From: an uncultured virus (IMG/VR IMGVR_UViG_3300017773_000003)
Lineage: Duplodnaviria > Heunggongvirae > Uroviricota > Caudoviricetes
Reading direction: 5' to 3' (one strand)
Virus record (IMG/VR): IMGVR_UViG_3300017773_000003
DNA: 64,000 nt
The notes below the pieces were generated by a model, which saw only the letters and a program-made list of their open reading frames with translations, was not told the DNA's origin and did no database searches. Positions 9,701 to 45,037 of the stretch are shown in pieces. The first letter of the stretch is position 1. Every line of letters begins with the position of its first letter. Both the position numbers and the translations under genes were made by a program.

Positions 9701-10195
9701 AAAGATCCAGTATCTGAGTCTTACAAAGTTACTCAAAAAGATGGTAGTACATTTGAACTTACTTTTACTTTTGAAGGTAAAAAAGGAACTGAAGTTACAA
9801 TGGATTCAGCTGCTACTATATCTAATTATCAAGATATAGATGGTAATACTATAAAAGATACAGAAGCATTAGAGCCTTATATAACTGAGTTTAGAGAAGG
9901 TAGAATTGCTGCAGTTAAAAATGATGACGGCACTGTAGAGCCTGGAGTTAGAGGAGCAACTAAAGCGCTTATTCAAGAGGTAACTAATTTATTTAATAAT
10001 GACCCATCAAATACATTTGCAGAAGTTGAGCATGATTTACCTCCTGTTACTTTTGAGTATATTTACCCAGAAGGAATGGAAAGTGATGTAGAAGATTCTC
10101 CTTTTACGAATAACCCGTCAGGACAAGAAGAAGAAGTTACCCTGGAAGGATTTGAAAGTGATGTAGAAAGTAGTACCAATGACGAATTATGTTAA
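3767..10195 (+). CDS. Giant virion cargo/ejection protein of the RNAP gene cluster
   Basis: 2142 aa with N-terminal Gly/Ala-rich hydrophobic segments, long coiled coils and an acidic C-terminus. Directly upstream of the virion RNAP. Confidence 0.65.
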   Translation: MEENNFLAGLDTTLASENLVDVDTEGNQIQTPEEVIDKEKSTHTLEDRDFISSLVADVEAETADEPDVGMTTNPRYGTTLKNVDYEAYDEYIDRPFSFISDDADDLRAYGQSSGEKWAHGIPKLIGKTGTNVLGSTVGLIYGAGAFASNLFAEESATKAFFDNDFQRGLDGINDWMDDKLPNYYTKEEQDYNILQSMGTANFWANDFTQGLSFIAGAVLSEGLTAGLASSAQVAKATKILKGAVGAKSAKYMGTKATDDILKKFNSTVDSNRMNTGLRTLRQLGTGAMYESGVEARHHYDESFKGLQEAFKETNGRGPSKEEYAALADLATKSANAVFAGNLALVGYGNYMMFPKIFGKGLKSTKAAYANALKNEVKGKGRAYYTLAKELGKKEVLARNAWRVLKTPLYEGFVEEGGQKLLDVAGQAAATNYYVSKGDPGFIKMAAEMLENTADKFGEVYGSKEGQKEIGIGFLLAAMGLPGRTSVKGKDGKTKKQGTWNGGIWESMQDIKLQKDSVNALKTRLENDPDAMKAFERNFNAMVRDGVIQDAKDFASIIDSPFAFYNAEEDGVFNYISARVRAGFESELIEDVKHIRNMSLDQFREAFDYKGISDLNDTELAARREDIATAFEKKITSVKAAFNKIDQSFTSWGEDQRNSIAHALSITEDSIKREESINKRLADMGLTLDIEVEEDKAKADKREADEAKLRLKNIWQRLSGKQVEQIKSDNAGAVEKVKRKLNIKELTDPVHLEELYNTILQEKTTLQAELDKIESSNISKEEKEKQAEVVQKKINLVLDRFADLSKAIDKGLDPYISAGEQQMLDAWEKADPSGFAVGKEEATQLLKDSRKLRARRHRAIDMYNQMLALREEGTWSKHGDIVPRPEVLYQQAIQSGKGPNVEIDDPKLAKLITRYQGKIVEFEYKNEKGDVSVKRFLVEDTKVESENDEILRPIPSFETLAILEELETARAELKTLREVEQNEVASTEVLIKEEAIKVLEDQLGSNADNTAPWAAKSLLKANGPISIIDQTQIAQELLKATLSKTETKLKNRLQLFNNSLDIFKTKFSETITSLRNYKKMLDNKSELSEDELENIFRKQLELEADLRVLRNDIANTRKEIASVETDLNVLQNFAQESKSLKTQEQVNAAIENLFEASYTMKDYASIYKEMLDNPVFQMAKTQKDGRTIIDSEKLNGFKNVINNGTKQIKELLLQYDDSVKPLYTKIEDLEKRLEELKKIIKVTKPTADAPFGRAYKKDQSKPEAAEYAKMAQRLQNAMFDLDRLEKAFIQDVDSLITSATQATNVAISLNNQMLALQQKLEYFLAPPLKKEEGDDVYTESSSGQMSIEDLINSTNASEYNSPAISNHYLGKTAGSHVAAIKRLKEIEDIIARNATVSEKLRTKVDELEKEQLESQLQFFAYTSAKNFSAKSKDANSHKVMAVSRKNLPEDLVDKIVFYDEKRKNKWFTANQNKTKLKGQDKETIVYILTNNKGEPKLINNKPVYTTMPNDELFTTYNTKGGPRVGYRYGKSDLNVKGRQEFTDVDNIIRYSIEDADGKTTGSLTENVLDIIERHRVRRQNVLDSSEPLMMSIIGHSTPHVLKKEGEQLNRPSRSIQSDVQNINLRPNVSLDNKVVIGGRSMTLKHNMLFIEKQGKLIPVSEQSLTEIDQETLYNLFIKYADQQTRRMNKELMKENAESIDSNDINSKNILQIIKDLVYFGPNTAKQQTDIADVKSKRFEIKPNKNGFSLYFGEFGEIQMQQLLNRSENTSLHEQLEEFIKNRSYNVNYFTLGKDVTQRSGGKAVEEYEEALKNARGRFFSTKGPVKVKDPNKALAQWKKENPRPKEEDAQYTPFTEYTVDKEGNVSKIQWSNYTQYLLGDTTGMRDKVRDINEIPLYTLMRDEIKEGDKNFYKGAQFQNTYLLVGTNKMTSLSEFLNPKKKKTTTRTFKPKVKNQAQTTTTTEEDGNYAPTPTDIMLRSKDPVSESYKVTQKDGSTFELTFTFEGKKGTEVTMDSAATISNYQDIDGNTIKDTEALEPYITEFREGRIAAVKNDDGTVEPGVRGATKALIQEVTNLFNNDPSNTFAEVEHDLPPVTFEYIYPEGMESDVEDSPFTNNPSGQEEEVTLEGFESDVESSTNDELC

Positions 10196-10206
10196 AAAAA
10201 TAGACC

Positions 10207-17505: not shown

Positions 17506-17508
17506 ATT

Positions 17509-20500
17509 ATGTCGTGTAGAATAGAAAGAAGTACTGAAGGTAAAATAGAAACTGTAAAAACACGGTACGGCCAAGAGTCTCCTTTGTTTAAAGAAATGAA
17601 TTCTTTGATTAACGATGGTAGAAATGAGGATCTTGCTTACGCAGCTTACCTTAAAGCAACTAACGACGCGGCAAATATTGGTATTTTACAAGAGCCTGCT
17701 TTAGTAAATAACATTGTACAAAATGTCTTAATGGATGTTAACGATAATTTTGACAAATGGAATAACATAAGCAAAGAGCTAAAATTTTCTGAAGCTAACC
17801 AGCAACTACAAAATGATCTTTTTTACTTTTTAGATAAGATTGGCGTAAAAGTAGAAACAGTTGATACTTTAACAAATGATAGAGGTGAAACTATAAATGC
17901 TACAGGTTTAGCAGATCTTACTAATAGGACGGTGCAGCTAGTTACTGGTAAAGCAGACATGTCTACACTGACCGAAGAGACTGTGCACTTTATTGTGGAA
18001 GTTTTGAGAGCTGATGGTAATCCTTTGTTTAAGTCTATGTACAACATGATACAGGACTATAGTGAATATAAAGAAGTAGCTAACCCAGATGGGTTTTACT
18101 ACAAAAAGTACAATGGCGATATAGATCTACTTAAAAGAGAGGCTATAGCTAAAGTAATAACAAAGCATCTTATTAACGGAGATGTGGCAAATGAAAAGAA
18201 AGAGAAAGTATCGAGACTAGAAAGATGGTGGCAAAGAGTTCTAAACATGTTATCGAAAATGTTTGGAAAAACACAGACAGATCCCTTTGCTGAAGCAGCG
18301 CTTGGAGTTGTAAATCGTAGTCTAGAAAATGTAATGCAGAGTGACCCTGCCGGTATAGAGGTTAGCGGAGTATTTTATCAAGAAGATTTAAGTAAAAGTA
18401 TACTCGATCAGTTAGACGAGGATTCTAAAAATTATGAAAACAAGGAAATAACAATAGATAAAGTTACTAACGATGATTTAAAACGTCATTGGAAAAAGAT
18501 AGCAGGAGATGATCCTAAAATAAAGAGGTACGTAGCTATTGCTGGTCCATATAAAGGTAAAGAATTAAAGTTTCGTGGGTCAGATAGGACAGCAGAAATA
18601 TTTAAACAAAAATTTGTAGGATATAAAAGTGAGTCTGAAAAAGAATTAGACATGCATAATCAAAATATTCGTATGGCTATGGGTACTAAAGGCCACTTGA
18701 TTATGGAAGATCTAATTGATTACCATTTTGAAGGTAAAGGAAGCATTAATGCAATTATACAAGGTGTAGGTAGCATGATGAAAGCTGAGCATGTCAATAG
18801 ACTAAGTTTAGCTATGAAGTCTTTAAAGAAAACTATTGATGACCAACAAAAAGCTATAAACAAACAAAATGGTACTAAAGGTAAATATGTAATACGTAAA
18901 GAGCAATTTATAGCAGATGAAAAGAATCAGGTTGGGGGTACTATCGATATGTTAGTCCTATACAGTGATGGATCTGCTTCTATTTATGATTATAAGTTTA
19001 AAAGCTCTAATGCGCAATATTCTAAAGAAAGAAGAGGTAGACTAAGTATTACTGGTGATATGTTTGCTAGCAGTTTAGAAGGATACGATTCACAAATTGG
19101 TCACTATAAAGACGCCTTGTTGTCTAAGTATGGTGTAACAAGAGTTCGACAATCCCGGATAGTACCTGTAGCGGTTCGTTATGAGTCTAAAGATGGGAGG
19201 TTATCTAATTCATTAACAGCTTTAGAGGCTTATGTAGATCCTTCTATATTATCAAAAAAAGACGCTAAAAGTCAAATAGAATCTTTAGATGGAACAACAT
19301 TAGATTGGCTACGACCTATACCAGTTGCGCAAGAGACTACAGATGACAAACAAGTTAACAATCTTATAGAGTCTGAGATGCGAAGATATAAGAAGCTTGT
19401 AGTACAACGTAAAAATGCACCTTTTGCAGATAGAGCTGCTTTAGATGAAGTTATAAATGAATCTCTTGCAATGATTAGAGCTCTTCAACATAATAAAGAT
19501 ATAAGTATTGGGCTAACTAACATTTTTAAAATAGTTCGTGTTGCAGAGGCTGGTATAGGTGTGCATGACGAATTTATAACTAAAGAGGGAGAGCAAGTTT
19601 TAAATCCAAAGTACTTATCAGAAAAACAATTAAGAGAAGTGTATGGAGAGTTAATACATTTTCAAGCTTATACAACATTAAATGATGTTTCTAATAAAAT
19701 TAAAAAATCTAATACTAAAAATAGTAAAGAACTAGTTAAAAAGTTAGAAAGTGCTTCTTTTAGTATCGGTACAACTATTAAAGCTCTAGAAGAGTTTATG
19801 GTTGACCGTATGGATATGAGAGCAAAAGAAAAAGGTATTAATAATTTTAGATATAACAGAATTCAATCTAAAGTTAATTCTTATATCAATGTATCTCAGC
19901 AATCTAACCCTTATAGTAGATATGTAACAAATGTTATGAATAAAGCTAATGGGGCTAAAGTTAAGTTTGAAGCTAAGCTTATAGCAGAGATAGAAGCTCA
20001 AGACGAACTACTTAAACAGTATGCAGAAGAAAACGGTATGTCTCTTAGAGAGGTGTATGAACAAAAAATATTAAATAGTGATACTCATAATTTATATGCC
20101 AAATATAAAACAGAGTTTTACGACATAAAAAATGACCGCATAGAAAAGGGAGATCATTTGTGGATGAAAAAACATCACACAATAAATCTAGAAAGATTTA
20201 ATAGAGATTTTCCTGAGTGGCAAAAACGTGAGTACAATCGTATAGAACAACATTTTGGTCCTACAAACAAAGCAGGTATAAAAGCAGCTAAAGTTAAATG
20301 GAATAAAAGGTATGACTTATTAAACAGTACTCAAGCCTGGTTAGATGCAGGTAAATACTGGTTAAACATTAACGAAGAAGCTACTCAAGAATATGTTACG
20401 GATGAATTTAAAGAAATTCAAAGTGACTCAAGATTAAAATCTTATTATGATTTTCACGTTAATAAAATTAAAGAGTTTGGGGATAAATTTGGTAAAAATC

Positions 20501-22485
20501 TAGGTAACACTTATGTAGCTTGGGTTAACAAATCGTCAACAGACGCACTATTGGAATCTAATAACAAAATAGACTCATTTAAAGCTTCTATATCAGATAG
20601 ATTTAAAGCAAAAGGGCATGATGTAAATCATTTGTTTGGTATGATCGATGATAAAGGAAATCCTATCAGACATATACCTCGTATATTTACTACTCCTCTT
20701 ACAGAAAAAGATGAGTTTGGTAATGATAAAATTAAACCTCAGCTAAAATCTACAGAACTAAGTAGATCATTGTATTTATTAGGGCAATCTGCTTTTGAAT
20801 ATGACATGAAAAGAGAAATAGAAGATGAGCTATTACTTATAGAGCTTATACTTCAAGAAGGTCTTGTAAATGAAATAGCAGAAGATAGAAAAGGGGCAGC
20901 AGTAAAAAAAGCTTTTGGTCAAGTGCACAACGTATTTAATACTGCACAAACGAATGCGCAAAACTTTACTGATGTTATAGACAATGCTTTATACGGTAGG
21001 ACTTTAAAAGATAAAGATGTTATTGTAGGCGATGATATAAGTTTAGTTAAAACAGGATTAACTTTAAAGAACTACGCATCTGTTGGAGCTCTTGGTTTAA
21101 AAGTTCCTGTAGCTGTAGGTGCTGGAGTAGCTGGTATTATAGGAGTACACATTCAAGGATCTAAAGGTTTACACTTTAACAACAAGCAAGTGTTAGAGGC
21201 GGAAGCGGCAATTATAAAAAGAGATCCTAAAGTTAGAGCTGTGATGGAGCATTTTCAATTAGCTGTACTAGATGTATCAAAACGTAAAGGGGAAATGCTG
21301 TCTAGTAATTACCGCGCAAAGTTTATGACTGGTGATCGTTGGTTTGAATTTTTAGCTCAAGCTGATTTACAAGTAGATACTATATTAGCCGTTGCTATGG
21401 CTAAAAATCATGGTATAGATTCTGAAGGCAATTTAAAAAGACTAGCAGAGTTACCAGATGGTACTAAATCTGTCTACGACTCTATGGAAGTTACAGATAA
21501 CGATAAATATACTTTTAGTGGAGCTCAGAATAAATATTTTGTAAAAGTTCCAAATGAAACAGAGAATTCTTTTAACAGTTTAAGGGCTAGACATGGAATC
21601 ATAAGTAACAAAATAAAAGGTACAGCGTCTCCTGAAGCAATTAACACTGCAGGTATGAAACTTATCAACAGATTTTTCTTACATTATAGATCATGGTTAC
21701 CAGGATTAGCGTTAGAACGTTTTGGTATAACAAGATATGACCATATTTTAGAACATTTTGATCAAGGTACCTGGAGAGGCTTCTTTGGGAACTTTGGGCC
21801 TGATGCAGAATTTGATAATATGGGAGACTTAGTTAAAGCTGAGTTTGCTATGACAGAATTTTTAGCAGCCACTTTAGTTGATATAGGTAAAATAACATTA
21901 GATATTGGGACCTTTGGTTTAACTAATTCGCACACTATAAAAGAAGGAAAAGCTCAGCAAGAGTTTGAGTTATTCTTAGCTGATAGAACAGAAGATGCAG
22001 ATTTTGATTTTAAAGGAGATCCAGCAAAACGAGAAGCTGCATTTCAGAAGTTTTTAGAAATGAAACGAGGAAATCTTAGAGGTACTTTATCTGAATTAAG
22101 AGCAGTTATTTTATTAGGACTACTTGTAATGGGGTTAGGCGGTGACTGGGATGACGACGGCAAAATTGATATACGTCAAAGCTGGTTAGGAAGAAAAACA
22201 TATAATGTTCTTAATAGAGTATATAGAGAAACAGCTGTATTTTGGGATCCAACAGAATTTGTAGGACCACGATCTACAGGTATACCTTTACTTGGGTTAG
22301 TGCAAGATGGTATTAAGCTTTTAAACAATAGTGCAGACGAACTTGGTGATAGACTAACTGGTAAGCAAGGGGTTGAGACTGATCGTATAGAGGCAGGGTA
22401 TTACACATTTAAATTAGCTCCCGGCCTAGGTGCGTTAGCAAAAGCTATGGAAATTTACCCTCAACACAAAACATCTAAAACATAA
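17509..22485 (+). CDS. Giant virion protein with degenerate zincin-like motif and PD-(D/E)xK nuclease domain
   Basis: 1658 aa. EETVH occupies the place of HExxH. GTKGH...E...GGTIDML...IYDYK nuclease motifs are present. Last gene of the RNAP cluster. Confidence 0.7.
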   Translation: MSCRIERSTEGKIETVKTRYGQESPLFKEMNSLINDGRNEDLAYAAYLKATNDAANIGILQEPALVNNIVQNVLMDVNDNFDKWNNISKELKFSEANQQLQNDLFYFLDKIGVKVETVDTLTNDRGETINATGLADLTNRTVQLVTGKADMSTLTEETVHFIVEVLRADGNPLFKSMYNMIQDYSEYKEVANPDGFYYKKYNGDIDLLKREAIAKVITKHLINGDVANEKKEKVSRLERWWQRVLNMLSKMFGKTQTDPFAEAALGVVNRSLENVMQSDPAGIEVSGVFYQEDLSKSILDQLDEDSKNYENKEITIDKVTNDDLKRHWKKIAGDDPKIKRYVAIAGPYKGKELKFRGSDRTAEIFKQKFVGYKSESEKELDMHNQNIRMAMGTKGHLIMEDLIDYHFEGKGSINAIIQGVGSMMKAEHVNRLSLAMKSLKKTIDDQQKAINKQNGTKGKYVIRKEQFIADEKNQVGGTIDMLVLYSDGSASIYDYKFKSSNAQYSKERRGRLSITGDMFASSLEGYDSQIGHYKDALLSKYGVTRVRQSRIVPVAVRYESKDGRLSNSLTALEAYVDPSILSKKDAKSQIESLDGTTLDWLRPIPVAQETTDDKQVNNLIESEMRRYKKLVVQRKNAPFADRAALDEVINESLAMIRALQHNKDISIGLTNIFKIVRVAEAGIGVHDEFITKEGEQVLNPKYLSEKQLREVYGELIHFQAYTTLNDVSNKIKKSNTKNSKELVKKLESASFSIGTTIKALEEFMVDRMDMRAKEKGINNFRYNRIQSKVNSYINVSQQSNPYSRYVTNVMNKANGAKVKFEAKLIAEIEAQDELLKQYAEENGMSLREVYEQKILNSDTHNLYAKYKTEFYDIKNDRIEKGDHLWMKKHHTINLERFNRDFPEWQKREYNRIEQHFGPTNKAGIKAAKVKWNKRYDLLNSTQAWLDAGKYWLNINEEATQEYVTDEFKEIQSDSRLKSYYDFHVNKIKEFGDKFGKNLGNTYVAWVNKSSTDALLESNNKIDSFKASISDRFKAKGHDVNHLFGMIDDKGNPIRHIPRIFTTPLTEKDEFGNDKIKPQLKSTELSRSLYLLGQSAFEYDMKREIEDELLLIELILQEGLVNEIAEDRKGAAVKKAFGQVHNVFNTAQTNAQNFTDVIDNALYGRTLKDKDVIVGDDISLVKTGLTLKNYASVGALGLKVPVAVGAGVAGIIGVHIQGSKGLHFNNKQVLEAEAAIIKRDPKVRAVMEHFQLAVLDVSKRKGEMLSSNYRAKFMTGDRWFEFLAQADLQVDTILAVAMAKNHGIDSEGNLKRLAELPDGTKSVYDSMEVTDNDKYTFSGAQNKYFVKVPNETENSFNSLRARHGIISNKIKGTASPEAINTAGMKLINRFFLHYRSWLPGLALERFGITRYDHILEHFDQGTWRGFFGNFGPDAEFDNMGDLVKAEFAMTEFLAATLVDIGKITLDIGTFGLTNSHTIKEGKAQQEFELFLADRTEDADFDFKGDPAKREAAFQKFLEMKRGNLRGTLSELRAVILLGLLVMGLGGDWDDDGKIDIRQSWLGRKTYNVLNRVYRETAVFWDPTEFVGPRSTGIPLLGLVQDGIKLLNNSADELGDRLTGKQGVETDRIEAGYYTFKLAPGLGALAKAMEIYPQHKTSKT

Positions 22486-22496: not shown

Positions 22497-22529
22497 GTAA
22501 AAAAGGGGGGCAAAGCCCCCTATTTTTTT
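22497..22529. terminator. Bidirectional intrinsic terminator between convergent gene blocks
   Basis: GGGGGC-AAA-GCCCCC hairpin with an A-run on the left and a T-run on the right, exactly where the + and - blocks converge. Confidence 0.85.
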
Positions 22530-22936
22530 CTATTATCAAATTGTTTGTGATTATTTAATACGTATTGAATAAACATTAAATTACACATAGCATGACCAAT
22601 GTGCGATTTACCGCTTTCAGAATCCAAATCTTCTCCTTTTTGAAAAGCAATAATATGTCTAAACAAGCTCCCTAATAACTCAGTTATAAGTTGCCCTTTT
22701 TTCCAATTATCTCGAGAATATTTAGTTTCTCCAAACATTAAGACTTCAACAAGAGGTTCAAGAGACTCGAAATCAATTTGATCCCAAGCCATTTTACCTT
22801 TATTGTGCCTATCTGCATACTTATGCTCGTCTGGCCACTCTTTTGATCTATTTATTACTCCTGGTTTATCTATATAACCTACAGTTTTTTTAGAAACAAA
22901 GTCGTATTTATACCTTACAAAGTTTTCTTTTGACAT
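22520..22936 (-). CDS. dATP/dGTP diphosphohydrolase-like protein (DUF5664 type)
   Basis: Motifs GK..W, VLMFGETKYSRDNWKKG, SLFRH and DSESGKSHIGHAMCNLMF are characteristic of this family. Confidence 0.8.
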   Translation of the reverse strand: MSKENFVRYKYDFVSKKTVGYIDKPGVINRSKEWPDEHKYADRHNKGKMAWDQIDFESLEPLVEVLMFGETKYSRDNWKKGQLITELLGSLFRHIIAFQKGEDLDSESGKSHIGHAMCNLMFIQYVLNNHKQFDNRKK

Positions 22937-25729: not shown

Positions 25730-28537
25730 TTATTGTGCGCTATCTTCCTCTAATTCAGGTTCTTCCGGCAGGACGTCACTGACATCCCACTCGTTTTTAC
25801 CTTTACATTCTAAGTAAGAAATTATCTCTTTCTCTAAGTCTAGAGTCATAGATTTATTTTCGTTTATACCGTCTATAGCAGAAAGTAAGTGCTTAACATC
25901 TTCAGAAAATTCTAGTATGTTATTATACATATCTAGTATTTCTATGTTAACGCCTACACATTCTCCTATATCAGATAGAACAAACAATTCCCTACTTTTG
26001 TTACTAATTAGCTCAGCTGAGTTAGCCTCGCTTTCTACTTGTTTACAATACAATTGAAACTCCATAAGCTTTTCAGCTTGCTTAAACACATCAGTTTCGT
26101 CTAGATTTCTGTGTCTGTAGTATTCAAATGAATTTTCTCTAGCTTTAATAACTTTCTTGTAGATCTTGTGAAGCCCAGGATTAATCCTTTTAAAGCTTGA
26201 TAAGAATTTAAGATCTTGTATTTCAGTTACTTTAGTAGCTGTAAACCATGTAATCATTGAATCATCCATTGTGTATCCTCCTTTATCATTCATTTGTAAG
26301 AAGAACTCACTAATGTGTTTACAATTTGGATTCTTCTTGATGTATTTAACTTTATTTTCACTTACCCTGATCAACTGCGGCGTATCCCATGTCTTAACTG
26401 CTTTTGCAGTCCAAGAATGGAAATTACCTCTGTTTTCACCATATGTCTCTCTAAGAGAAACAGCTGGTTCTTCATAATAGAATATTGGGTGCTGCTGATC
26501 AGTATCCCAACTAGACCATGTATTCTCTGGGTAAACTTCTTTAAAGCTAGGGGCTTGCACATGTAAGATTTTAGCTGCTAGATGCATTAAATCTTCATCT
26601 GCTTTAGTGCAATAATAAATACGAGACTCGCTTTCCATAAGATCTTTGGCCTTTGGCTCTATCTTGTCAAGGGTGTACTGTTTATTATCATTACGTCTCT
26701 TATCAAATCTAAGAGAATAAGCAACCATACGCTTTTCTATCTCACGGCGCTCTGCAGGAGAAATGTTATCAAACTTGGATACTTCCATAGCTTGCTCTTC
26801 TTCTGTAGTGAACTCCGTAGTCCAGTCTTCAGGTACTACTACATCATCATAAGAATGATAAAACTCAGACTCTTTAAAGTATTTAAGTACAGCTGCACGT
26901 TTACGTGAGACTCTACTTTTCTCTTTAATTAGTGCAAGCTTACCTTCTCCTTGAGCTATAGCAATCTTACTGTCAAACTTAGCATCTAGATCTTCCAGAG
27001 TAAGTACTGAAGGACGACATTCCTGTTCTCCACCTTTAATAAGATATGCATCCGTCAATCTATTGAAAGATACATTCTCTTTAAAATAGAAATGCTTAGG
27101 CTCTATACCACCCCACACTACTAATTTGTCATCTCTTACAGATTTAAACTTACCTTTCTCAACTTCATATAAAAGCTTAGTAATTTTAAATCCTTCGAAT
27201 AACTTAGTAGGAACTGCGTATCGTATACGTTTATCACCAGGGAACGTAGGACTAATCATGTCTTTATCTATAATATTAGATAGTTTGTTTAGAACACGAT
27301 TCTCACTACGAGCACCACTAACAAGTGCACGAGTCTTAGAAATCCAATCAATGAAATCCTTAGTGTCTAGCTCTTCCTGGACTACATTAGTAGCCTCTAT
27401 CGCAGCTTTCTTAATAATACCTTGAACATACGCTTTAGTAGCTTCGTTCCATATTACCTTCTCACGCGATGGAGTTACGTCAACACCTTCTTGTATAACT
27501 GTTTCCACGCCGTTGTCATCTACTACAACCTGTCTCATAGGACATTTGAATGCAATAGCGCCATACAGTTGCTCCATTTCTAATTCTCGGAAATCTATGT
27601 GACCATAGTTAATACCTGTTTCAGCTTGCGGATTCTTTACCACAAGTACATGTGGTTTAGAATATGTATAGCCATCACTGATAATAAGATGCTCTGAGCT
27701 GTAAATCACATCGTTCTTAAAGTTAACTTCATTTACATAGCCGCTTTCGCCTACAATTGAAAAGTTAACGTTGTTTAAGTAATTTAGTTGCTCTTCTATA
27801 GCTTCTTTGTACTTACGTCTATTATGTTTCTTAGTTCTGAAGCTTACTTCCGTGTAATTCTTAGAATCTGATTCTTCATAATATACTTTAGTACCATCTG
27901 AGAATGTAACAAATGGGTTTTGTTTACCTGCTTCTACATTGAAAGCTGGTATAATGAAATCAGTCTTGTAATTGTAGCAATTACATTTAAATCTCATTCC
28001 GTTGTAGACAGTTTCTATAGTATAGAAATCAACGCCGGTAGACAATGCTGCTTTAGCACCTAAGCCAAATGCACCAAAGTTCTCTGATGTGTTACGCTTA
28101 GTAGAATACCCTAGTTCTAGGACACCTTCTAGTCTGCGTGCACCAATACCTACGCCGTAATCCATTACTGAAAATGTATCACAATAGCCTACACCTTCAC
28201 TTTCAGTATAAGTAAGATCTATCTTATTCTTATGCTTGTCTAGATGTAAAACATTGTAGTACTCTGCATTAAAGTTACTGTCTTCGTACTGTGCGCCTGA
28301 GCGCGTAATGTAATAGTCTTCTGCTTTCTTCTCTCCACTTAGTATTTCTAATGCTATTTCTTTCTCCCTCTGTGAATCACAAGCATTAGTTGTGAGCTCG
28401 CGGATGGTACTCGAAATTGGCATAGAATACTGCGTTGATTGCAGAATGTCAAAGACCATTCTCTTTGCCCCTTCGTTGATCTTTTTCTCGATCCCTTTAG
28501 AGCCTTTAATCTGTGTGTCAATGGTTTTTATACTCAT
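25730..28537 (-). CDS. rIIA: rIIA-like protein with N-terminal GHKL (Hsp90-like) ATPase
   Basis: IRELTTNACDS, DYGVGI, STKR...GAFGLGAK and VTPSREKV motifs. Paired with the rIIB-like gene. Confidence 0.8.
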   Translation of the reverse strand: MSIKTIDTQIKGSKGIEKKINEGAKRMVFDILQSTQYSMPISSTIRELTTNACDSQREKEIALEILSGEKKAEDYYITRSGAQYEDSNFNAEYYNVLHLDKHKNKIDLTYTESEGVGYCDTFSVMDYGVGIGARRLEGVLELGYSTKRNTSENFGAFGLGAKAALSTGVDFYTIETVYNGMRFKCNCYNYKTDFIIPAFNVEAGKQNPFVTFSDGTKVYYEESDSKNYTEVSFRTKKHNRRKYKEAIEEQLNYLNNVNFSIVGESGYVNEVNFKNDVIYSSEHLIISDGYTYSKPHVLVVKNPQAETGINYGHIDFRELEMEQLYGAIAFKCPMRQVVVDDNGVETVIQEGVDVTPSREKVIWNEATKAYVQGIIKKAAIEATNVVQEELDTKDFIDWISKTRALVSGARSENRVLNKLSNIIDKDMISPTFPGDKRIRYAVPTKLFEGFKITKLLYEVEKGKFKSVRDDKLVVWGGIEPKHFYFKENVSFNRLTDAYLIKGGEQECRPSVLTLEDLDAKFDSKIAIAQGEGKLALIKEKSRVSRKRAAVLKYFKESEFYHSYDDVVVPEDWTTEFTTEEEQAMEVSKFDNISPAERREIEKRMVAYSLRFDKRRNDNKQYTLDKIEPKAKDLMESESRIYYCTKADEDLMHLAAKILHVQAPSFKEVYPENTWSSWDTDQQHPIFYYEEPAVSLRETYGENRGNFHSWTAKAVKTWDTPQLIRVSENKVKYIKKNPNCKHISEFFLQMNDKGGYTMDDSMITWFTATKVTEIQDLKFLSSFKRINPGLHKIYKKVIKARENSFEYYRHRNLDETDVFKQAEKLMEFQLYCKQVESEANSAELISNKSRELFVLSDIGECVGVNIEILDMYNNILEFSEDVKHLLSAIDGINENKSMTLDLEKEIISYLECKGKNEWDVSDVLPEEPELEEDSAQ

Positions 28538-33962: not shown

Positions 33963-34235
33963 TCACCCATGCCTTCTGCTCATTTTGCCATTACTACCTG
34001 TATTCTTAGGGTATGGCACACTATTTATTGTAGATGATTTAGCATATGTTTTAGGGTATGTAAACCCAAATTGTAATGTAAATATATCATCAGTCACAAA
34101 TTTAGATTTCTTTGCTTCTTCTTCTTTTCTTAATTTTTCATTTCTTCTCTCTCTGTTGTATTCAGGGAGTCTTCCTTTAGAGACAAACTCTGGCTTGCCT
34201 TCTAGGGGTTCGTAATCGTGGTATCCTTTTTTCAA
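33963..34235 (-). CDS. Hypothetical basic protein
   Basis: 90 aa ORF with a TTG start overlapping the SPL-like stop. Confidence 0.55.
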   Translation of the reverse strand: MKKGYHDYEPLEGKPEFVSKGRLPEYNRERRNEKLRKEEEAKKSKFVTDDIFTLQFGFTYPKTYAKSSTINSVPYPKNTGSNGKMSRRHG

Positions 34236-35089
34236 AATATGTATCTTATTTTATTCCATGGTATAATGCTATCATGAAGGTTAGTAAATTGGTTAATTAA
34301 TTTTCGTTTAAGATGTCTTTCGTATCTAATGTTTCTCCCTCCATACTGTGAGATCTTATCCTCTTGTATATCTGGTGTCCACAGTTGTGCTTCTGCATTT
34401 GGTTTATCTATAAGATTAGCTCTATGCTTGTTCTCGTTGTGAGTTAGAAATATAACTTCTGCAAGAACTTGCTTTTTGTAATCTACATAATCGTCTAACA
34501 TTTGAAACAACTGCTTGTAATCCTCTAGCCATGTCTCCGTCACAATGACTGGACTGAAGTTAACATGGACGTCATACCCTGCATCTATAAATGCGTCGAT
34601 AGCTTTAATCCTATCAATGATTTTAGATGTAGCGGGTTCATGTAACGTAGACATGTGCTGAGGCATCAAACTGAAACGTATGCGTATCTTACCTTCAGGG
34701 TTATACTCAATCAACTTAGGATTTACGTACTTGGTAGCGAACGAGCCCATGGCTATAGGGTGAGTTCTAAAAAACTCAAAGATGTTCTCCCAGTCGTGAT
34801 GTCTAAGGTGCAATGCAAAGTCCTCGTTACAACTAATGTCGTAAGTAGTGTGTTGCGCGTGTGTTTGATTAGGTTTGTTAACGTGTGTAAAGAATGCGTG
34901 GTTATTTACTGCTGTGAGTATATCTCCTGTATTCTGTGCTATCGTTAATCCTTTAGGTTTGTTACGTTTCATGTAACAGTAACTGCAATCGTACAAACAG
35001 CCATGACCAAAAGAAGGTGTAATAAAGTCTGTAGATCTACCGCTTGTTTTAATGTCAAGGGCTTTTCTATTTACTTTTGTTATTAACAT
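34232..35089 (-). CDS. splB: Spore photoproduct lyase-like radical SAM enzyme
   Basis: GCLYDCSYCY (CxxxCxxC). YDISCNED matches the conserved SPL Cys (B. subtilis FEASCTSD, C141). FATK, RIRFSL, NFSPVI and C-terminal IRYIF also fit. Confidence 0.85.
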   Translation of the reverse strand: MLITKVNRKALDIKTSGRSTDFITPSFGHGCLYDCSYCYMKRNKPKGLTIAQNTGDILTAVNNHAFFTHVNKPNQTHAQHTTYDISCNEDFALHLRHHDWENIFEFFRTHPIAMGSFATKYVNPKLIEYNPEGKIRIRFSLMPQHMSTLHEPATSKIIDRIKAIDAFIDAGYDVHVNFSPVIVTETWLEDYKQLFQMLDDYVDYKKQVLAEVIFLTHNENKHRANLIDKPNAEAQLWTPDIQEDKISQYGGRNIRYERHLKRKLINQFTNLHDSIIPWNKIRYIF

Positions 35090-40319: not shown

Positions 40320-40555
40320 GTTGTAAATTCATCTGGTTCACGGTCATTAACAGTATCTTGTAAGTGTTGATCGTATTCAGGCATACAATGCTTGTCTACA
40401 TATTCACATACACTTTTAGCGTAAGCTGTTTTTATTTCCGAACCTTGGAACATAAATTCTGATATATTTTTCTTAACTGCTTCTTGATACATCATTTTAA
40501 ATATATTATAGCTGTTATCTACAACCATAGCATAAATCCATTTCATATAGCTCAT
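40316..40555 (-). CDS. Hypothetical protein
   Basis: 79 aa, ATGA overlap with polA. Confidence 0.65.
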   Translation of the reverse strand: MSYMKWIYAMVVDNSYNIFKMMYQEAVKKNISEFMFQGSEIKTAYAKSVCEYVDKHCMPEYDQHLQDTVNDREPDEFTT

Positions 40556-40563
40556 AATAAATA

Positions 40564-40628
40564 AATTAAGTTAAGACAGTGTTGGCGTCAAGGCGTTAAA
40601 TAAAACCTTACACTGTCTTAACATAATT
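40564..40628. other. Long inverted repeat (13 bp perfect core), possible RNase III site or terminator
   Basis: GTTAAGACAGTGT (40570-40582) pairs with ACACTGTCTTAAC (40610-40622), extendable by AATTA/TAATT. Confidence 0.7.
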
Positions 40629-40632
40629 AATA

Positions 40633-41217
40633 CTACATCATCTGCATATCATCAGCTGTAAATGCTTCTACAACTGTAGGAGAAGCAATAGCAACTGAGT
40701 CAGGTTCTAGATAAGTGTGTAAATCATCAGTAGCACCATTAGTAAGAATAACATCTGTGTTAGCAAATATATAGTTACCATTGTGAGTGATGAAGTCACC
40801 TTCTTTACCTTTACGTTTAGCAGACTTTTTTAAGTTTTCTAATTGCCATTCAGTACCTTGTAAGGTTTCTGTTACAATTATTCTACAACGTTTATCAAAC
40901 ATAGTAGGGTTGAAAACATCTAAGTCAAGCATTTTACCTTTTTCAGAGTCATACCAAGGTGCATCTGGACCAAAGTTGATACCAAGCAATTCTTGAGCAT
41001 CTAATGGTTCAGCTGTTTGCCAAGACATACGAGCTTTAGAACTAAATCTATCATCTGATTTATTTAGCATAGATAAAACATTTTCTACTTTAGAAGATGT
41101 AAGTACTTCTGCAAATGCTAATTGTATTTTACCGTTAGCGATTTGACGGGCGTTCACTAATAAAGTGTCACCTTTTTGTAGGGCATCTTTAGTCCCTGAG
41201 TTTAATTGATTAGGCAT
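40633..41217 (-). CDS. Hypothetical early protein
   Basis: 194 aa ORF preceded by a structured leader. Confidence 0.75.
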   Translation of the reverse strand: MPNQLNSGTKDALQKGDTLLVNARQIANGKIQLAFAEVLTSSKVENVLSMLNKSDDRFSSKARMSWQTAEPLDAQELLGINFGPDAPWYDSEKGKMLDLDVFNPTMFDKRCRIIVTETLQGTEWQLENLKKSAKRKGKEGDFITHNGNYIFANTDVILTNGATDDLHTYLEPDSVAIASPTVVEAFTADDMQMM

Positions 41218-41243
41218 GTTGTTTACATGTATTTAAATGTTTA

Positions 41244-41273
41244 TGCTAGTTTCGAAGGTATACTAGCAACCTT
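41244..41273 (-). promoter_or_regulatory. H-type pseudoknot in 5' leader
   Basis: - strand AAGGU-UGCUAGU-AU-ACCUU-CGAA-ACUAGCA: S1 AAGGU/ACCUU and S2 (U)GCUAGU/ACUAGC(A). Confidence 0.65.
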
Positions 41274-41275
41274 TT

Positions 41276-41321
41276 TAGCAAAGCATGTAGGAGTCGAACC
41301 TACACTTGTACCATATGCTTT
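41276..41321 (-). ncRNA. Miniature tRNA-like element (acceptor stem + T arm, no anticodon arm)
   Basis: AAAGCAU-AUGGUACAAGU-GUAGG-UUCGACU-CCUAC-AUGCUUU-G-CUA: 7 bp acceptor stem, 5 bp T stem, canonical T loop. Confidence 0.75.
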
Positions 41322-41514
41322 ATAAAAAAATATTGTAAGTTGTGGAAATTTTGGTGCCCGCAGTTTTAATTCCTGCTACTTACGATAATAAACAGAACGC
41401 GTTTCTATTTTATGAAAAGCACATACGTCGAATGGTTACGACATTGTAATTATATAAATTACTAAAAAGCAGTTTGTCTACTTGCTTAGGTATACGTCGA
41501 ATATCACGACCTTT

Positions 41515-42171
41515 CTATGGTTTTTTAAGAGTATCATTAACTTTAGCACGTAAATATGCATTAGTAAATTGCTCTTTAGTTAATGGTTCATGTTGAAGTT
41601 CTCCATTAAGCAATTTTACACCACCTTTATAACTGCAATAATATCCTTGATTAATTGGATCATCATTAACATCATTATAATAATAAAATAGTTCATTATT
41701 ACTTTCATTATACATAGTAAAGCTTTTAGGTATAAATCTTATATCTATAATGTGATTAATGCTTTTTGCTTCGAATAGATCGTTTCTTATGAATTCTTGT
41801 ATTCTATCTTCACAATATGACATCAGTTCTGCTGGTGTTGGTTCAGGAGGATGAATATCATTTATTTTCTCATACTCATCCCATTCAAATGCTTGTCTTG
41901 AGTCTTCAGAACTATAACCTGAATTAGATAAAGCTATTTCAAGTTCTTTAACACGCTTTTCAGCTTTAACAAGTTCGTCTTTATAAATTACAGCAGCAGC
42001 ATTAGTATCTGTATTGTTATCTCCTACTAATGCATATTTGGTATCTATTTCTGTACGTAATCTATTGATTTCATCGCGTTTATCATTGATATTAGCTATA
42101 TGTTTAGCAATAATATCATTGAATACTATAATTAAATCGTGTAAGTCAATGTTAGTTTGTGGTTTAACCAT
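41515..42171 (-). CDS. Hypothetical coiled-coil early protein (start moved to ATG 42171)
   Basis: The ORF track start (42243) overlaps a better small ORF. The body is coiled-coil-like. Confidence 0.65.
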   Translation of the reverse strand: MVKPQTNIDLHDLIIVFNDIIAKHIANINDKRDEINRLRTEIDTKYALVGDNNTDTNAAAVIYKDELVKAEKRVKELEIALSNSGYSSEDSRQAFEWDEYEKINDIHPPEPTPAELMSYCEDRIQEFIRNDLFEAKSINHIIDIRFIPKSFTMYNESNNELFYYYNDVNDDPINQGYYCSYKGGVKLLNGELQHEPLTKEQFTNAYLRAKVNDTLKKP

Positions 42172-42310
42172 TTTTCTGCTCTTTAGTGTTATTTTCTTGC
42201 TTTTCTTCTTCGTGGCATTGTTGACAAGTATGAAACTCATCACAAGTACACGTTAGCTCAGGACTTATACTATATAAGTCCCAAGCATCTTGTGCATCTT
42301 CGTAAAACAT
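42164..42310 (-). CDS. Small Cys-rich protein (48 aa), not in ORF track
   Basis: MFYEDAQDAWDLYSISPELTCTCDEFHTCQQCHEEEKQENNTKEQKNG. TAATG coupling to the upstream gene. Confidence 0.6.
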   Translation of the reverse strand: MFYEDAQDAWDLYSISPELTCTCDEFHTCQQCHEEEKQENNTKEQKNG

Positions 42311-42651
42311 TATAAACCAGAGTCTTTAACCCATTCGAAATCGTATGTGCCACCTTTTCTAGCATCATAAGACATTATATCGTGATGATCTTCTCTTATA
42401 CTCTTATCAATAGTTTTGCTAACTAATTTAGTTTTAGCTCTCTCAACTGTTTGTAGCATATCTGCTATTCTTTTTAGATCTTTATTGTCTTCATGTAGGT
42501 TATACACTATATTTATTAGTGTTTTTACATGATTTCTCAAGTGTTTTACAGTGCTTACTGCAGTTTCTTTGTTGTCAATTGATTCGAGTTTGTACTCTTG
42601 ACTTGTTACAATATTTTGTATTGCGTCGTAAACTTTTTCGTTTTTTACCAT
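42310..42651 (-). CDS. Hypothetical coiled-coil protein
   Basis: 113 aa ORF in the tightly packed early cluster. Confidence 0.65.
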   Translation of the reverse strand: MVKNEKVYDAIQNIVTSQEYKLESIDNKETAVSTVKHLRNHVKTLINIVYNLHEDNKDLKRIADMLQTVERAKTKLVSKTIDKSIREDHHDIMSYDARKGGTYDFEWVKDSGL

Positions 42652-42653
42652 GA

Positions 42654-42824
42654 TTATTCTTTGTTATAAAAGTCTGTTAATGTTTGTTTAGTTATTGGAT
42701 ATGTAGTTATTACGTCGTTAACGTGGTCACAATTTGTGCATTCTGCAAGTGTATCATGACCAACGTGTTCAAGAGTATGACCTTTATTATGGCCACACTC
42801 TGAACAGTTTATAGTTGCTATCAT
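42654..42824 (-). CDS. Zinc-ribbon protein (56 aa), not in ORF track
   Basis: MIATINCSECGHNKGHTLEHVGHDTLAECTNCDHVND... has two CxxC pairs. ATGA overlap with the upstream stop, and it fills the gap exactly. Confidence 0.75.
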   Translation of the reverse strand: MIATINCSECGHNKGHTLEHVGHDTLAECTNCDHVNDVITTYPITKQTLTDFYNKE

Positions 42825-43027
42825 TTCTTATTACGTGTTAGTGTTGAAATGATTTTATCTAATTTAGCTTTCTCTTTCTTTGCACCATCAGGTTGATTGA
42901 TTTGTAATGCTTTGCGTATTTGTACATAAGCATCTAATCCATCTTTGTTGATGAAAGAATCACGAGCATCTTGCCTATCTTTAGCAAGAGCTCGTCTTAT
43001 ATCTTTTTTGAATTTACTGTGTGCCAT
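42821..43027 (-). CDS. Small basic hypothetical protein
   Basis: 68 aa ORF coupled to its neighbours. Confidence 0.65.
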   Translation of the reverse strand: MAHSKFKKDIRRALAKDRQDARDSFINKDGLDAYVQIRKALQINQPDGAKKEKAKLDKIISTLTRNKK

Positions 43028-43029
43028 AA

Positions 43030-43338
43030 TTAGTTTGCTTGTTTATACCATGCTAATTCCATTACCATGAAAGGTAATATCATTTGACATGAGAATGAAT
43101 AGTCTTTAGTTTTTTCTATTGCTATTGCAAATCCTGCAATCCATCCAATTGTAAGTGAACGTTTGACGCACCATTTACGTGTGTTGTACAAATAAATAGC
43201 ATAGCTTACAATAAGCCAGCATAACCATAAGGATGTGCACACAAGTTTATCAATTGCTTCTGATAAATGTAGTCTGTCTGTCAATATTACTAGAGACAGA
43301 GTTAACAATCCAAGAATAATGTAGTTTAGTCTTTTCAT
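43030..43338 (-). CDS. Small membrane protein
   Basis: Two to three hydrophobic segments in 102 aa. Confidence 0.65.
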   Translation of the reverse strand: MKRLNYIILGLLTLSLVILTDRLHLSEAIDKLVCTSLWLCWLIVSYAIYLYNTRKWCVKRSLTIGWIAGFAIAIEKTKDYSFSCQMILPFMVMELAWYKQAN

Positions 43339-43368
43339 TTTGTTAATGATTAAGTTAATTTAGGTTAA

Positions 43369-43618
43369 GGCAAGGAGAGTAACAAGCGAACAGCTTGCTA
43401 CCTCTTGAAGCTTTTGCCAGAGCTTTTTATTATGTGATGCGTTTTACAGCTATTTCACAAACCATCTACCGATCGTTAGGTAAATACTCTTTCATACGAG
43501 AGTCATCTGGGTTGACGCATCACTTGTGCTAATGTTATACTATCCAATGTAACAAGATTGTATACATTGGGATTTATGTCAATATGGTGTGTGTGGTGGT
43601 TGGTGACCACTCACACAA
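43369..43618. other. Cluster of stem-loops in early intergenic region
   Basis: Examples are GTAACAAGC/GCTTGCTAC, GTGATGCGTT/GACGCATCAC enclosing two hairpins, CCAATGTA/TACATTGG and GTGTGTGTGGT/ACCACTCACAC. Confidence 0.6.
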
Positions 43619-43648
43619 TCAAATGTTAATTAAAAAAATGTAGCTATG

Positions 43649-43927
43649 CTACATTTCTTTGCGGGCTTTGGCGATAGCCATGTCCGCCTTACGGGCTGCG
43701 GCAGCAGACATGTAAGGAAGTAATACATCGTATTGCTTTGTGTTATCCTTGGATGGCACACTTTCCCAACCTACGACGGAGTCTGGTTGGTACATATCCA
43801 AATCAAACGTAAGTGTAGAGTGGATTTTGCGCGAACCTTCGTGCTTAAACTTAATGGGTTGCATAGTCTTCCCATTGATTGTTGTGTGCTGTCCAACAGC
43901 CACAACATAAACTAAATCTTCATTCAT
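43649..43927 (-). CDS. First gene of the leftward early block, hypothetical (start moved to ATG 43927)
   Basis: MNEDLVYVVAVGQ... preceded by an AT-rich leader. Confidence 0.65.
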   Translation of the reverse strand: MNEDLVYVVAVGQHTTINGKTMQPIKFKHEGSRKIHSTLTFDLDMYQPDSVVGWESVPSKDNTKQYDVLLPYMSAAAARKADMAIAKARKEM

Positions 43928-44078
43928 GAAATTTATATTTAACTTTGTTAATACTAGAGGGGGGTACCTCATCGCCAGAGAACAATGGGGGTCGTCGTTT
44001 GAGTTGGTTGGTACACTCGAAGATAAAACAAATTTTAAAAAATTTTACCCAGAATTTTTTCCGTAAGCTTTAATTAAG

Positions 44079-44086
44079 TACATTTG
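44079..44086 (+). promoter_or_regulatory. Bacteroidota -7 element TACATTTG (near-leaderless transcript)
   Basis: TAnnTTTG 4 nt before ATG 44091. Confidence 0.6.
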
Positions 44087-44090
44087 CTCC

Positions 44091-44252
44091 ATGTCTGAAA
44101 AAACCTGCAAGAATTGTATCGATGGTCAATGCACCTGTAAAAGTAAGAAGGATTATAACGCCTTCGAAGATTATATAAAAGACCTTACAGAGTCTGACCA
44201 ACCCGCTTGTTCTATAGAAGATCAAGAAAACTGCGAGAATTGCGGTAGTTAG
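44091..44252 (+). CDS. Small Cys-rich protein (53 aa), not in ORF track
   Basis: MSEKTCKNCIDGQCTCKSKKDYNAFEDYIKDLTESDQPACSIEDQENCENCGS, with a promoter immediately upstream. Confidence 0.75.
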   Translation: MSEKTCKNCIDGQCTCKSKKDYNAFEDYIKDLTESDQPACSIEDQENCENCGS

Positions 44253-44254
44253 AT

Positions 44255-44518
44255 TAGAAGCACTCATAGAGTATCACCCCCCAGGTAGCCAATAAGGGGT
44301 CAGAAGTTGGATTGTAGGTTCAAATAGAACTAGAGTTTTCTCCAATAGCTTCGAAAAGAGTAACGTATAGGCTTTAGTTAGGATAAATTGCACACAGGTA
44401 AGTGCGGTGAATTAACATCAGTATTATTATCCTTGGGTCCCCATCGGGAGCACTGCTAAACGCTAAAATCACACTTGAAATCTAAAATCCAAGGGGGATA
44501 CCTGTGTCTTTTTGGATC
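44255..44518 (+). ncRNA. Candidate structured ncRNA (~265 nt)
   Basis: No sizeable ORF. Several stems with G-U pairs on the + strand and a 9 nt loop-loop complementarity (see findings). Confidence 0.55.
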
Positions 44519-44533
44519 TCTTTAAATAAAATC

Positions 44534-44564
44534 TTGTATTGTAGCAGAAACTTTTATATATTTG
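44534..44564 (+). promoter_or_regulatory. Bacteroidota promoter (TTG -33, TATATTTG -7)
   Basis: TTG at 44534-44536, a 20 nt spacer, then TATATTTG at 44557-44564, upstream of groES. Confidence 0.75.
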
Positions 44565-44588
44565 TGGAAACATAAAACTATATACAAG

Positions 44589-44855
44589 ATGAAATTCAAA
44601 CCAAATAGTAATTGGGTGGTTCTACCCGATCCAACTTCAGACACTACTGAATCCGGTATAATCTTAGACGAGACTACAAAGAGAGCTCAAGCTAGAAGTA
44701 ATGTACTTAAAGTTTTAGCTGTTGGCGATCACTGTCACTTTGTTAAGCCTGGGGATATTGCTACAATCGATCCTAGAAGCGAAGCTATACAATTAACTAT
44801 AGAAGGAAAAGAGTGCTTACTAATTAGTGAGTCTCAAATTATAGGTAAAGAATGA
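44589..44855 (+). CDS. groES: GroES-like co-chaperonin (start moved to ATG 44589)
   Basis: MKFKP...WVV, TTESGIIL (mobile loop), VLAVG, VKPGD and IEGKECLLISESQIIG. Confidence 0.85.
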   Translation: MKFKPNSNWVVLPDPTSDTTESGIILDETTKRAQARSNVLKVLAVGDHCHFVKPGDIATIDPRSEAIQLTIEGKECLLISESQIIGKE

Positions 44856-45037
44856 TTACTAGTAGCGTAATTGTAGACACCCCTGAAGAATGGGTCAGAA
44901 CTGTTTTAAATTTTGAAGAAAAAATTAGCGACCTTGAAGCTATAGGCTCAGTTAAACATTGGGACACTACCTTATGGGTTTGTGAAGACGGATTTAAAGT
45001 TAGTATTGAAGTCGAAATGGATGAAGACTATGAGTAA
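44852..45037 (+). CDS. Small acidic hypothetical protein
   Basis: 61 aa, ATGA overlap with groES. Confidence 0.55.
   Translation: MITSSVIVDTPEEWVRTVLNFEEKISDLEAIGSVKHWDTTLWVCEDGFKVSIEVEMDEDYE

Follow-up and report, generated by a model that had tools for sequence, protein, structure and literature searches.

A conserved tRNA top-half minihelix between two genes of crAss-like phages: a candidate signal for cleavage by host tRNA-processing enzymes

Introduction

What is half a tRNA, an acceptor stem stacked on a T arm with no anticodon arm, doing in the gap between two genes of a phage? The question is raised by positions 41279-41321 on the minus strand of the window, by which we mean the whole 64,000-nt stretch of viral DNA analysed here (IMG/VR record IMGVR_UViG_3300017773_000003). 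An earlier sequence-only reading of this locus had described such an element and had offered two functions for it, namely a site at which host enzymes would process the phage message, or a decoy for tRNA-targeting defence nucleases.

The window is part of a crAss-like phage genome. Its plus strand carries three giant ORFs (3767-22485) and a head module with matches to crAss-type PHROGs for its terminase, portal and capsid proteins, the terminase being about 40% identical to Crassvirales terminases. A replicative block on the minus strand (22.5-44 kb) encodes a family-A DNA polymerase, DnaB-like and SNF2-like helicases, an AAA_24 ATPase and a flap nuclease. The same strand encodes a dATP/dGTP diphosphohydrolase N-terminal domain (ORF at 22520-22936; PF18909, 95 bits), from a family presumably linked to phages that replace a DNA base, and, within the replicative module, a RIIA-like protein of 935 aa (25730-28537) and a spore-photoproduct-lyase-like protein (34232-35089; PF20903).

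The element sits in a 297-nt gap between the called ORFs for a 242-aa protein (41515-42243), which forms a variable cassette on its 5' side, and a conserved 194-aa protein (40633-41217), all on the minus strand. A blastn search with 40600-42300 found no DNA-level relative among 50,697 deposited phage records, a tblastn search with the 194-aa protein gave no match in 50,697 phage records, and the relatives that we did find are uncultured marine and freshwater contigs. A preprint on phage phi14:2 (10.1101/2020.03.07.982082) assigns the whole replicative module of that phage to the early class, made by the virion RNA polymerase, and describes this early module as having no common promoter motif. 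By analogy with phi14:2 only, the minihelix described here may lie in an early transcript.

Results

Read 5' to 3' on the minus strand, the minihelix consists of the acceptor 5' strand AAAGCAT (41321-41315), an 11-nt linker ATGGTACAAGT (AUGGUACAAGU in RNA; 41314-41304) that contains GGU, the T-stem 5' strand GTAGG (41303-41299), the T loop TTCGACT (UUCGACU; 41298-41292), the T-stem 3' strand CCTAC (41291-41287), the acceptor 3' strand ATGCTTT (41286-41280) and a discriminator G (41279), which is followed by CTA (41278-41276). Every part that had been named earlier, a 7-bp acceptor stem AAAGCAU/AUGCUUU, a 5-bp T stem GUAGG/CCUAC, the loop UUCGACU and the G-CUA end, was confirmed in the minus-strand sequence, and the description of an acceptor/T-arm half that has neither a D arm nor an anticodon arm holds and is confirmed by the relatives. 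RNAfold predicts the same stacked helix at -14.6 kcal/mol (z -2.25), and 8 of 200 shuffled sequences fold as well. In real tRNAs such a GG and the T loop are the two partners of the elbow; the GG of the linker may dock on the T loop in the same manner here.

The Rfam tRNA model (RF00005) covers the whole element once the D and anticodon arms are treated as deletions, and gives it 19.7 bits (E 0.48; gathering score 29); our own Infernal model, R1, scores it at 71.5 bits and finds no second copy in the window. Over the window ARAGORN called 0 tRNA genes and no tmRNA, and Rfam at gathering thresholds found nothing. A separate E-value scan of 42000-45000 with Rfam gave one chance-level match to a CRISPR repeat and nothing else. 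The level expected by chance was estimated with a strict pattern, a perfect 7-bp stem, a perfect 5-bp stem and a TKCRANN loop, applied to the window and to 100 dinucleotide shuffles of it. The window has 1 match, 45% of the shuffles have at least one when the linker may be up to 123 nt long, and 10% of the shuffled windows have one with a linker of at most 20 nt. Taken alone, the sequence of the minihelix in the window is only mildly unusual and is weak evidence; it is more than chance because it is conserved and covaries in relatives.

Several familiar identities were considered and rejected. The element shares with canonical tRNAs the 7-bp acceptor stacked on a 5-bp T stem and the UUCRANY T loop, and its identification as such a tRNA fails on the 29-bit cut-off, on the lack of an ARAGORN gene call and on the 11-nt linker that stands in place of the D and anticodon arms. 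The tRNA-like domain of a tmRNA is not a suitable description either, as ARAGORN found no tmRNA, Rfam had no match at gathering thresholds and the two halves are joined by 11 nt only. An intrinsic terminator, a GC-rich hairpin followed by a U run, was rejected since CUAAAAAGG comes directly after the element; the sole terminator-like site within 40500-42400 is at 41444-41425.

Relatives were fetched with the 194-aa protein and then with its alignment, which gave 55 viral-contig and 77 metagenome loci (132 in all, 108 of them distinct). A T arm lies at most 130 nt upstream of the gene in 12 of the 102 distinct loci that have at least 130 nt of upstream sequence. Nine distinct versions of the minihelix occupy the same slot in marine crAss-like phages. 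Type A (the window, L072, L069, L015 and L017) has a 7-bp acceptor and the linker AUGGUAYAARY. Type B has a 6-bp acceptor and the linker AAUGGUUARU, and is found as identical 40-mers in L012, L014, L016 and L067 and as a divergent second copy in L017 at 447-486, where the downstream context differs. In type B the upstream ORF has its stop codon within the 5' acceptor strand, so this form is probably co-transcribed with that ORF. L068 places a 6-bp acceptor on a 7-bp T stem, and the stacked helix thus ranges from 11 bp (type B) to 13 bp (L068). In L070 the original 5' strand is degraded, and in L082 and L154 the T-loop motif has been lost. The 3' trailer after the discriminator of the window is CUA, not CCA.

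L004 and L013 carry a full cloverleaf of 79 nt at the same site, which scores 51.6 bits with the Rfam tRNA model and has the same T stem as the minihelix. The L013 cloverleaf has both middle arms and an anticodon loop of 11 nt, and is rejected by ARAGORN, apparently for that loop. Because this full cloverleaf stands at the same site, we conclude that the minihelix derives from a tRNA. The earlier suggestion that homologs might reveal a decayed full-length tRNA is borne out as far as descent is concerned; simple decay is contradicted by the conservation of the element and by its compensatory changes. Searches with R1 of the whole records of three minihelix-type relatives found one or two copies in each, none beyond those already known, and in five further records only T-arm fragments. 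There are no ordinary tRNA genes in the window or in the records of three relatives.

Sequence changes in the stems preserve the pairing; the T loop UUCGAYU and the linker GGU are constant. In the type-A set of five sequences all 60 of 60 cells pair and 5 of the 12 pairs have changed on both sides; 1 of 500 shuffles reaches 5 double-changed pairs, and a partner strand that is slid out of register pairs at 30-55%. The R1 alignment of 12 matches (9 distinct) has 98.1% of its 103 cells paired and both-side changes in 7 of the 12 pairs, figures that lean towards the structure since the alignment was fitted to the model and the sequences are related. Here 2 of 500 shuffles reach 7 pairs, and sliding by 1-3 columns leaves 38-56% of the cells paired with 0-1 double-changed pairs. 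The search for conservation and covariation among relatives that the sequence-only reading had proposed as a check, with an Infernal model, has thus come out in favour of the structure. One and the same 11-nt linker is kept in five lineages. The minihelices of the window and L072 are identical at 42 of 43 nt, even though the adjacent proteins share only 58% identity and nothing links the flanks upstream. L015 and L017 have U.G wobbles, which pair solely when the element is read in the sense of the genes; the folded molecule is therefore the minus-strand RNA. The assignment of 41279-41321 as a tRNA top-half minihelix draws together sequence, fold, the Rfam tRNA score, model R1 and the covariation in relatives; judged by comparison of sequences, the minihelix is a real, conserved, tRNA-derived structured RNA, which is maintained rather than decaying.

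The flanks of the element change abruptly at both ends. The upstream sequences of four type-A lineages are unrelated up to the first base of the element, after which the same AAAGCAU follows in each. At the 3' end, the window carries type A and L012 type B; from CUAAAAAGG onward the two are 99.4% identical, with 12 differences in 2143 nt, and upstream of it they mismatch at 37 of 50 and 141 of 200 positions, the likeness of their upstream ORFs being limited to one patch of 20 aa. The minihelix travels with the upstream cassette and not with the leader. Since the flanks change at the 5' and the 3' end of the element, the limits of the conserved blocks coincide exactly with the points at which a tRNA would be cut by RNase P and RNase Z. 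The motif CUAAAAAGG (41270-41278, minus strand) lies directly 3' of the discriminator, is nearly invariant in nine aligned leaders and is the predicted RNase Z side of the element as well as a recombination breakpoint. Further upstream, a block of about 50 nt that begins at the upstream stop codon, TAGAAAGGTCGTGATATTCGACGTAT.CCTAAGCA...GCTT (41467-41517, minus strand; aligned between the window, L013 and L069), is conserved behind three different ORF ends. Its core ATTCGACGTAT is repeated at 41423-41433, 69 nt downstream, beside the terminator-like hairpin at 41444-41425; there are 2 copies in this gap, against an expectation of 0.61 for the entire window.

The leader of the 194-aa gene (41215-41278) begins with CUAAAAAGG; hairpin 2, whose loop has 11 nt, comes next, and an AU-rich spacer then leads to the start-codon hairpin. 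It is the same in 8 IMG/VR loci and is more conserved than the coding sequence, being nearly invariant across proteins that are 50-79% identical. Hairpin 2 (41244-41268, minus strand), in which UGCUAGU and ACUAGCA enclose the 11-nt loop AUACCUUCGAA, is predicted by folding and is supported by covariation in L016, whose stem is doubly compensated (UGCUGAU/AUCAGCA). A pseudoknot AAGGU:ACCUU is possible in this hairpin, with no covariation behind it. The start-codon hairpin CAUGU-AAACA-ACAUG (41215-41229, minus strand) was found by folding, is present in 9 of 9 leaders, encloses the codon at 41217-41215 and has one compensated pair in L014 (CAUGA/UCAUG). A leader built in this way, with its start codon sequestered, calls to mind translational operators like the one of T4 gene 32.

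The protein of 194 aa is beta-rich with a disordered acidic tail. It has 280 homologs, none of which carries a functional name; searches of Pfam and PHROGs gave no family for it, and a sequence profile against the PDB gave nothing below E 0.3. Its AF2 model has a pLDDT of 81, a Foldseek search with the model gave nothing below E 0.08, and VIA-align returned weak matches (best Z 3.9) to small beta-barrels, OB folds included. The notion that it might be an SSB-like protein that regulates its own synthesis at the leader, in the style of gp32, is offered as an idea only. In the 77-nt gap after the gene (40556-40632, minus strand) there is an 11-bp hairpin, UUAAGACAGUG...CACUGUCUUAA, with a 29-nt loop, just before the next start codon.

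A different RNA takes the place of the minihelix in some relatives. In L045 the space between the upstream ORF and the homolog of the 194-aa gene holds a twister-P1-like ribozyme, which ends 44 nt before the start codon; the minihelix of the window ends 61 nt before its own. The matches in L045 (1396-1454) and L047 (1397-1455) score 52.1 bits (E 9e-9), where the curated cut-off of Rfam RF03160 is 67.2. A shorter version of 43.7 bits is found about 610-690 nt upstream in L007 (1400-1453), L008 (670-723), L009 (219-272) and others. Overall the twister-P1-like matches range from 43.7 to 52.1 bits (E 1e-6 to 1e-12) and come from marine and freshwater crAss-like contigs; some of them do not have the optional P3 stem. 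Wherever it occurs, the twister core shares the strand of the gene; 7 of 102 distinct loci have it within 130 nt upstream and 14 of 85 within 800 nt, and 0 of the loci with a twister core have an upstream T arm as well. Searches of whole records found one twister in each of 2 twister-type genomes, 0 in 3 of the minihelix type and 0 in 14 control genomes. Both the minihelix and the twister are missing ahead of the gene in about 70% of the relatives, and a cut at this junction is for that reason not essential.

tRNA-like sequences are also found on the other side of the gene. A T arm lies downstream of the homolog of the 194-aa gene in 17 of 96 distinct loci, and ARAGORN called 11 genes in 28 loci, of which 7 were 'tRNA-???' calls with abnormal anticodon regions (anticodons of 2 or 4 nt). 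Downstream tRNA-like genes are seen in L045 (2119-2210), L047 (2117-2198), L049, L050, L052, L055, L060 and L117, with long hairpins or odd loops in place of anticodon loops; those of L045 and L047 score 56-58 bits, above the Rfam tRNA cut-off. In L051 (2116-2163) a 17-nt linker joins the acceptor stem to the T arm, with no anticodon arm, and by eye this linker may form a D-arm-like hairpin. Since the anticodon arm has been lost or disabled independently several times and the top half kept, decoding is not the function under selection.

Other RNA candidates were noticed after the gene in individual loci. Just after the 194-aa homolog of L041 (about 2055-2130) there is by eye the complete layout of a type-I hammerhead (CUGAUGA, a stem II hairpin, GAAAC, a stem III hairpin, GUC and stem I), followed by an odd tRNA-like fold; the candidate has no match to Rfam Hammerhead_1 (RF00163). 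The freshwater loci L044, L102 and L103 share a conserved, structured element CCCCUG...CAAGG-AGCGAAA-CCUUG-CAGGGG about 40-90 nt after the homolog, for which Rfam has no match at E <= 0.05. In L110 a DUF805b RNA motif (RF02914; 932-964, 42.6 bits against a gathering score of 35.6) adjoins a tRNA-like gene of 101 nt (736-836).

The RNA material that we consulted consists of four of 21 runs, all as assembled Logan contigs, which cannot show RNA ends. The gene, the leader and a type-B minihelix are joined without a break in one RNA-library contig (X1 record 1, depth 38.8), which represents either uncleaved RNA or DNA in the library. Contigs of a relative stop at 41262 (X1, followed by Illumina adaptor) and at 41264 (X5), in the 5' strand of hairpin 2; this might reflect a discrete RNA end in that relative, but the hint is weak at best and carries no weight in our argument. 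No contig covers 41323-42175, and the type-A upstream side of the window is in none of the four runs.

Discussion

From the observed structure, its conservation and covariation, its strand, the module boundaries and the presence of a twister in the same slot, we infer a cleavage and the kind of enzyme that would perform it. Our proposal, to which we give about an even chance of being correct, is that the minihelix is a cis-acting signal for host RNase P or RNase Z to cut the polycistronic phage message. We rank it first because the twister ribozyme and the top half of a tRNA share one trait, that each of them specifies a cut in an RNA. The minihelix would be transcribed within the minus-strand message of the replicative module, and would keep only what the host enzymes that process tRNA ends read, namely a helix of about 12 bp formed by the acceptor and T stems, the T loop and a linker GG that may form the elbow. 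RNase P would then cut at the 5' end, between 41322 and 41321, and the cut behind the discriminator (after 41279) would fall to RNase Z or to some other 3'-trailer nuclease. With either one, the conserved leader and its 194-aa gene would be parted from the variable cassette upstream, and the downstream mRNA would gain a defined and structured 5' end. If the early module has no common promoter motif, as the analogy with phi14:2 suggests, processing could be a natural way to individual mRNA ends. In type B a cut on the 3' side would be more sensible, because a 5' cut by RNase P would strip the upstream ORF of its stop codon. With only one or two copies of the minihelix per genome, a genome-wide punctuation system is not indicated. 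The host-enzyme processing site that had been suggested earlier thus gains indirect comparative support, as the conserved blocks end at the ends of the element and a twister sits in the same slot; the cleavage itself is predicted. We count against the proposal the uncut type-B contig, the many relatives that have neither element, the variation of the helix from 11 to 13 bp, the CUA trailer and the loss of a stop codon that a type-B cut could entail.

A concern about any reading in cis is that the RNA could act after its release. If both ends were cut and CCA were added, a free RNA of 43 nt could divert enzymes or defence toxins that read the acceptor end or the elbow of tRNAs, as a decoy or sponge, or could itself be charged. 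The same structural conservation and covariation would apply to such an RNA, the sharp module boundaries at both ends would fit a discrete gene product, and it would be the only tRNA-like RNA of those phages, given that neither the window nor the records of three relatives contain ordinary tRNA genes. However, its position is fixed ahead of one gene, the twister replaces it in relatives, where a ribozyme can stand in for a cut site but not for a decoy, and the free variation of its acceptor sequences speaks against a partner that recognises a particular sequence. The anticodon loop, where most known tRNA-targeting defence nucleases cut, is missing from the minihelix. The decoy for such nucleases put forward by the sequence-only reading found no support in our analysis, the sole inference bearing on it being that there is no anticodon loop to cut. 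We consider a released trans-acting RNA unlikely, and its narrower form, a free 43-nt 'anticodon-less tRNA' with CCA that works as a decoy or sponge in trans or as a charged amino-acid carrier outside translation, is in our judgement improbable. We regard it as similarly unlikely that the minihelix is an uncleaved structure that regulates or stabilises the message in cis, be it a protein-binding operator that controls, through tRNA mimicry, translation of either the 194-aa gene or the ORF upstream, or a protective fold at a 3' or 5' end. The neighbouring leader, with its hairpin 2, start-codon hairpin and AU-rich spacer, is more conserved than the coding sequence and would suit regulation of this kind, and the 194-aa protein may be a small beta-barrel that binds nucleic acid and has an acidic tail, a weak argument given that its fold matches reach a Z of 3.9 at most and are inconclusive. 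The minihelix nevertheless varies in sequence where the leader does not, moves with the upstream cassette and not with the leader, and has its second copy in L017 in a different downstream context.

Readings that grant the RNA no present role fare worse. A neutral relic of a tRNA gene that has lost its D and anticodon arms would be consistent with the full cloverleaf and shared T stem at the same site in L004 and L013, with the degraded 5' strand of L070 and with the lost T-loop motif of L082 and L154. It is made very unlikely by the near identity of the window and L072 minihelices (42 of 43 nt) beside proteins that are 58% identical and flanks that are unrelated, by compensatory changes in 7 of 12 pairs, and by an 11-nt linker kept in five lineages. 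The remaining explanation, to which we attach hardly any probability, places the function in the DNA, as a site of recombination or integration (an attP-like copy of the 3' half of a host tRNA) or as a sequence that marks module boundaries. The 3' halves of tRNAs are classic integration targets, and the mosaic breakpoint falls exactly at the 3' end of the element, yet this breakpoint can be accounted for simply by the edge of the highly conserved leader. Moreover, the 3' halves (T arm and 3' acceptor strand) of the window element and of the L013 cloverleaf had 0 exact matches in 185,579 prokaryote species represented by one genome each, Pfam and PHROG scans of 38 window ORFs found no integrase, and the G.U pairs and the complementary 5' strand would be superfluous for an att site.

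Among known systems, the proposed cut site would work most like the t-elements of plant mitochondria, an analogy drawn from structure and position. Passages of Forner et al. 2007 (PMC1920247) describe these as tRNA-like structures at the 5' or 3' ends of mRNAs that are taken as signals for RNase Z and RNase P, with a T-arm motif GGTTCRANYCC in non-canonical cloverleaves of about 74 nt whose ends were mapped experimentally; some of them (ccmC, nad6) overlap the ends of reading frames. The minihelix contains the same motif (GGTTCGACTCC, 41300-41290, minus strand), likewise within a tRNA-like fold, and lies on the strand of its flanking genes. Its type-B copies overlap the end of the upstream reading frame as the ccmC and nad6 elements do, so that a 5' cut there would remove the stop codon, just as happens with those two plant elements. 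As far as those passages describe t-elements, the systems differ in that the minihelix has two arms in 40-46 nt, belongs to a phage and has ends read from sequence, whereas t-elements belong to an organelle and have mapped ends. The Twister-P1 ribozyme (RF03160) resembles the minihelix in occupying the same slot before the same gene, but its fold is unrelated and it cuts itself, where the minihelix would need a host enzyme.

Host enzymes also set RNA ends at acceptor-like helices where tRNA genes are co-transcribed with mRNAs, and RNase P cleaves substrates that are not tRNAs, such as the precursor of the C4 RNA of phages P1 and P7 and intercistronic sites in operons of E. coli. Unlike the minihelix, these substrates are full tRNAs or unrelated hairpins, and in the literature searched we found no description of a conserved family of anticodon-less T-arm minihelices among RNase P substrates. 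The tRNA-like domain of tmRNA and the mascRNA that RNase P and RNase Z release from MALAT1 both pair an acceptor stem with a T arm in the absence of a decoding anticodon arm; they differ from the minihelix in that tmRNA has a tag reading frame and pseudoknots between the two halves and mascRNA is a eukaryotic cloverleaf. RNase III cuts the early message of phage T7 at conserved structured sites between genes, which likewise combines a host endonuclease with a polycistronic early phage transcript, with an enzyme and a structure that differ from those considered here. The full-text literature searched contained no paper on a tRNA minihelix in crAss-like phages.

Should the minihelix prove to be a cut site, some crAss-like phages would borrow the tRNA-trimming enzymes of their hosts to process an early polycistronic message at one defined junction; should it act in trans, phages without ordinary tRNA genes would still make one tRNA-like effector. 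A stripped-down top half of this kind is missed by standard tRNA finders and by Rfam, and since minihelices mark the boundaries of mosaic modules, they may aid the annotation of uncultured phage genomes. The twister at the same junction in sister lineages amounts to a natural swap experiment on the role of small self-cleaving ribozymes in phages and bacteria, and suggests that a ribozyme and a tRNA mimic are interchangeable as makers of an mRNA end.
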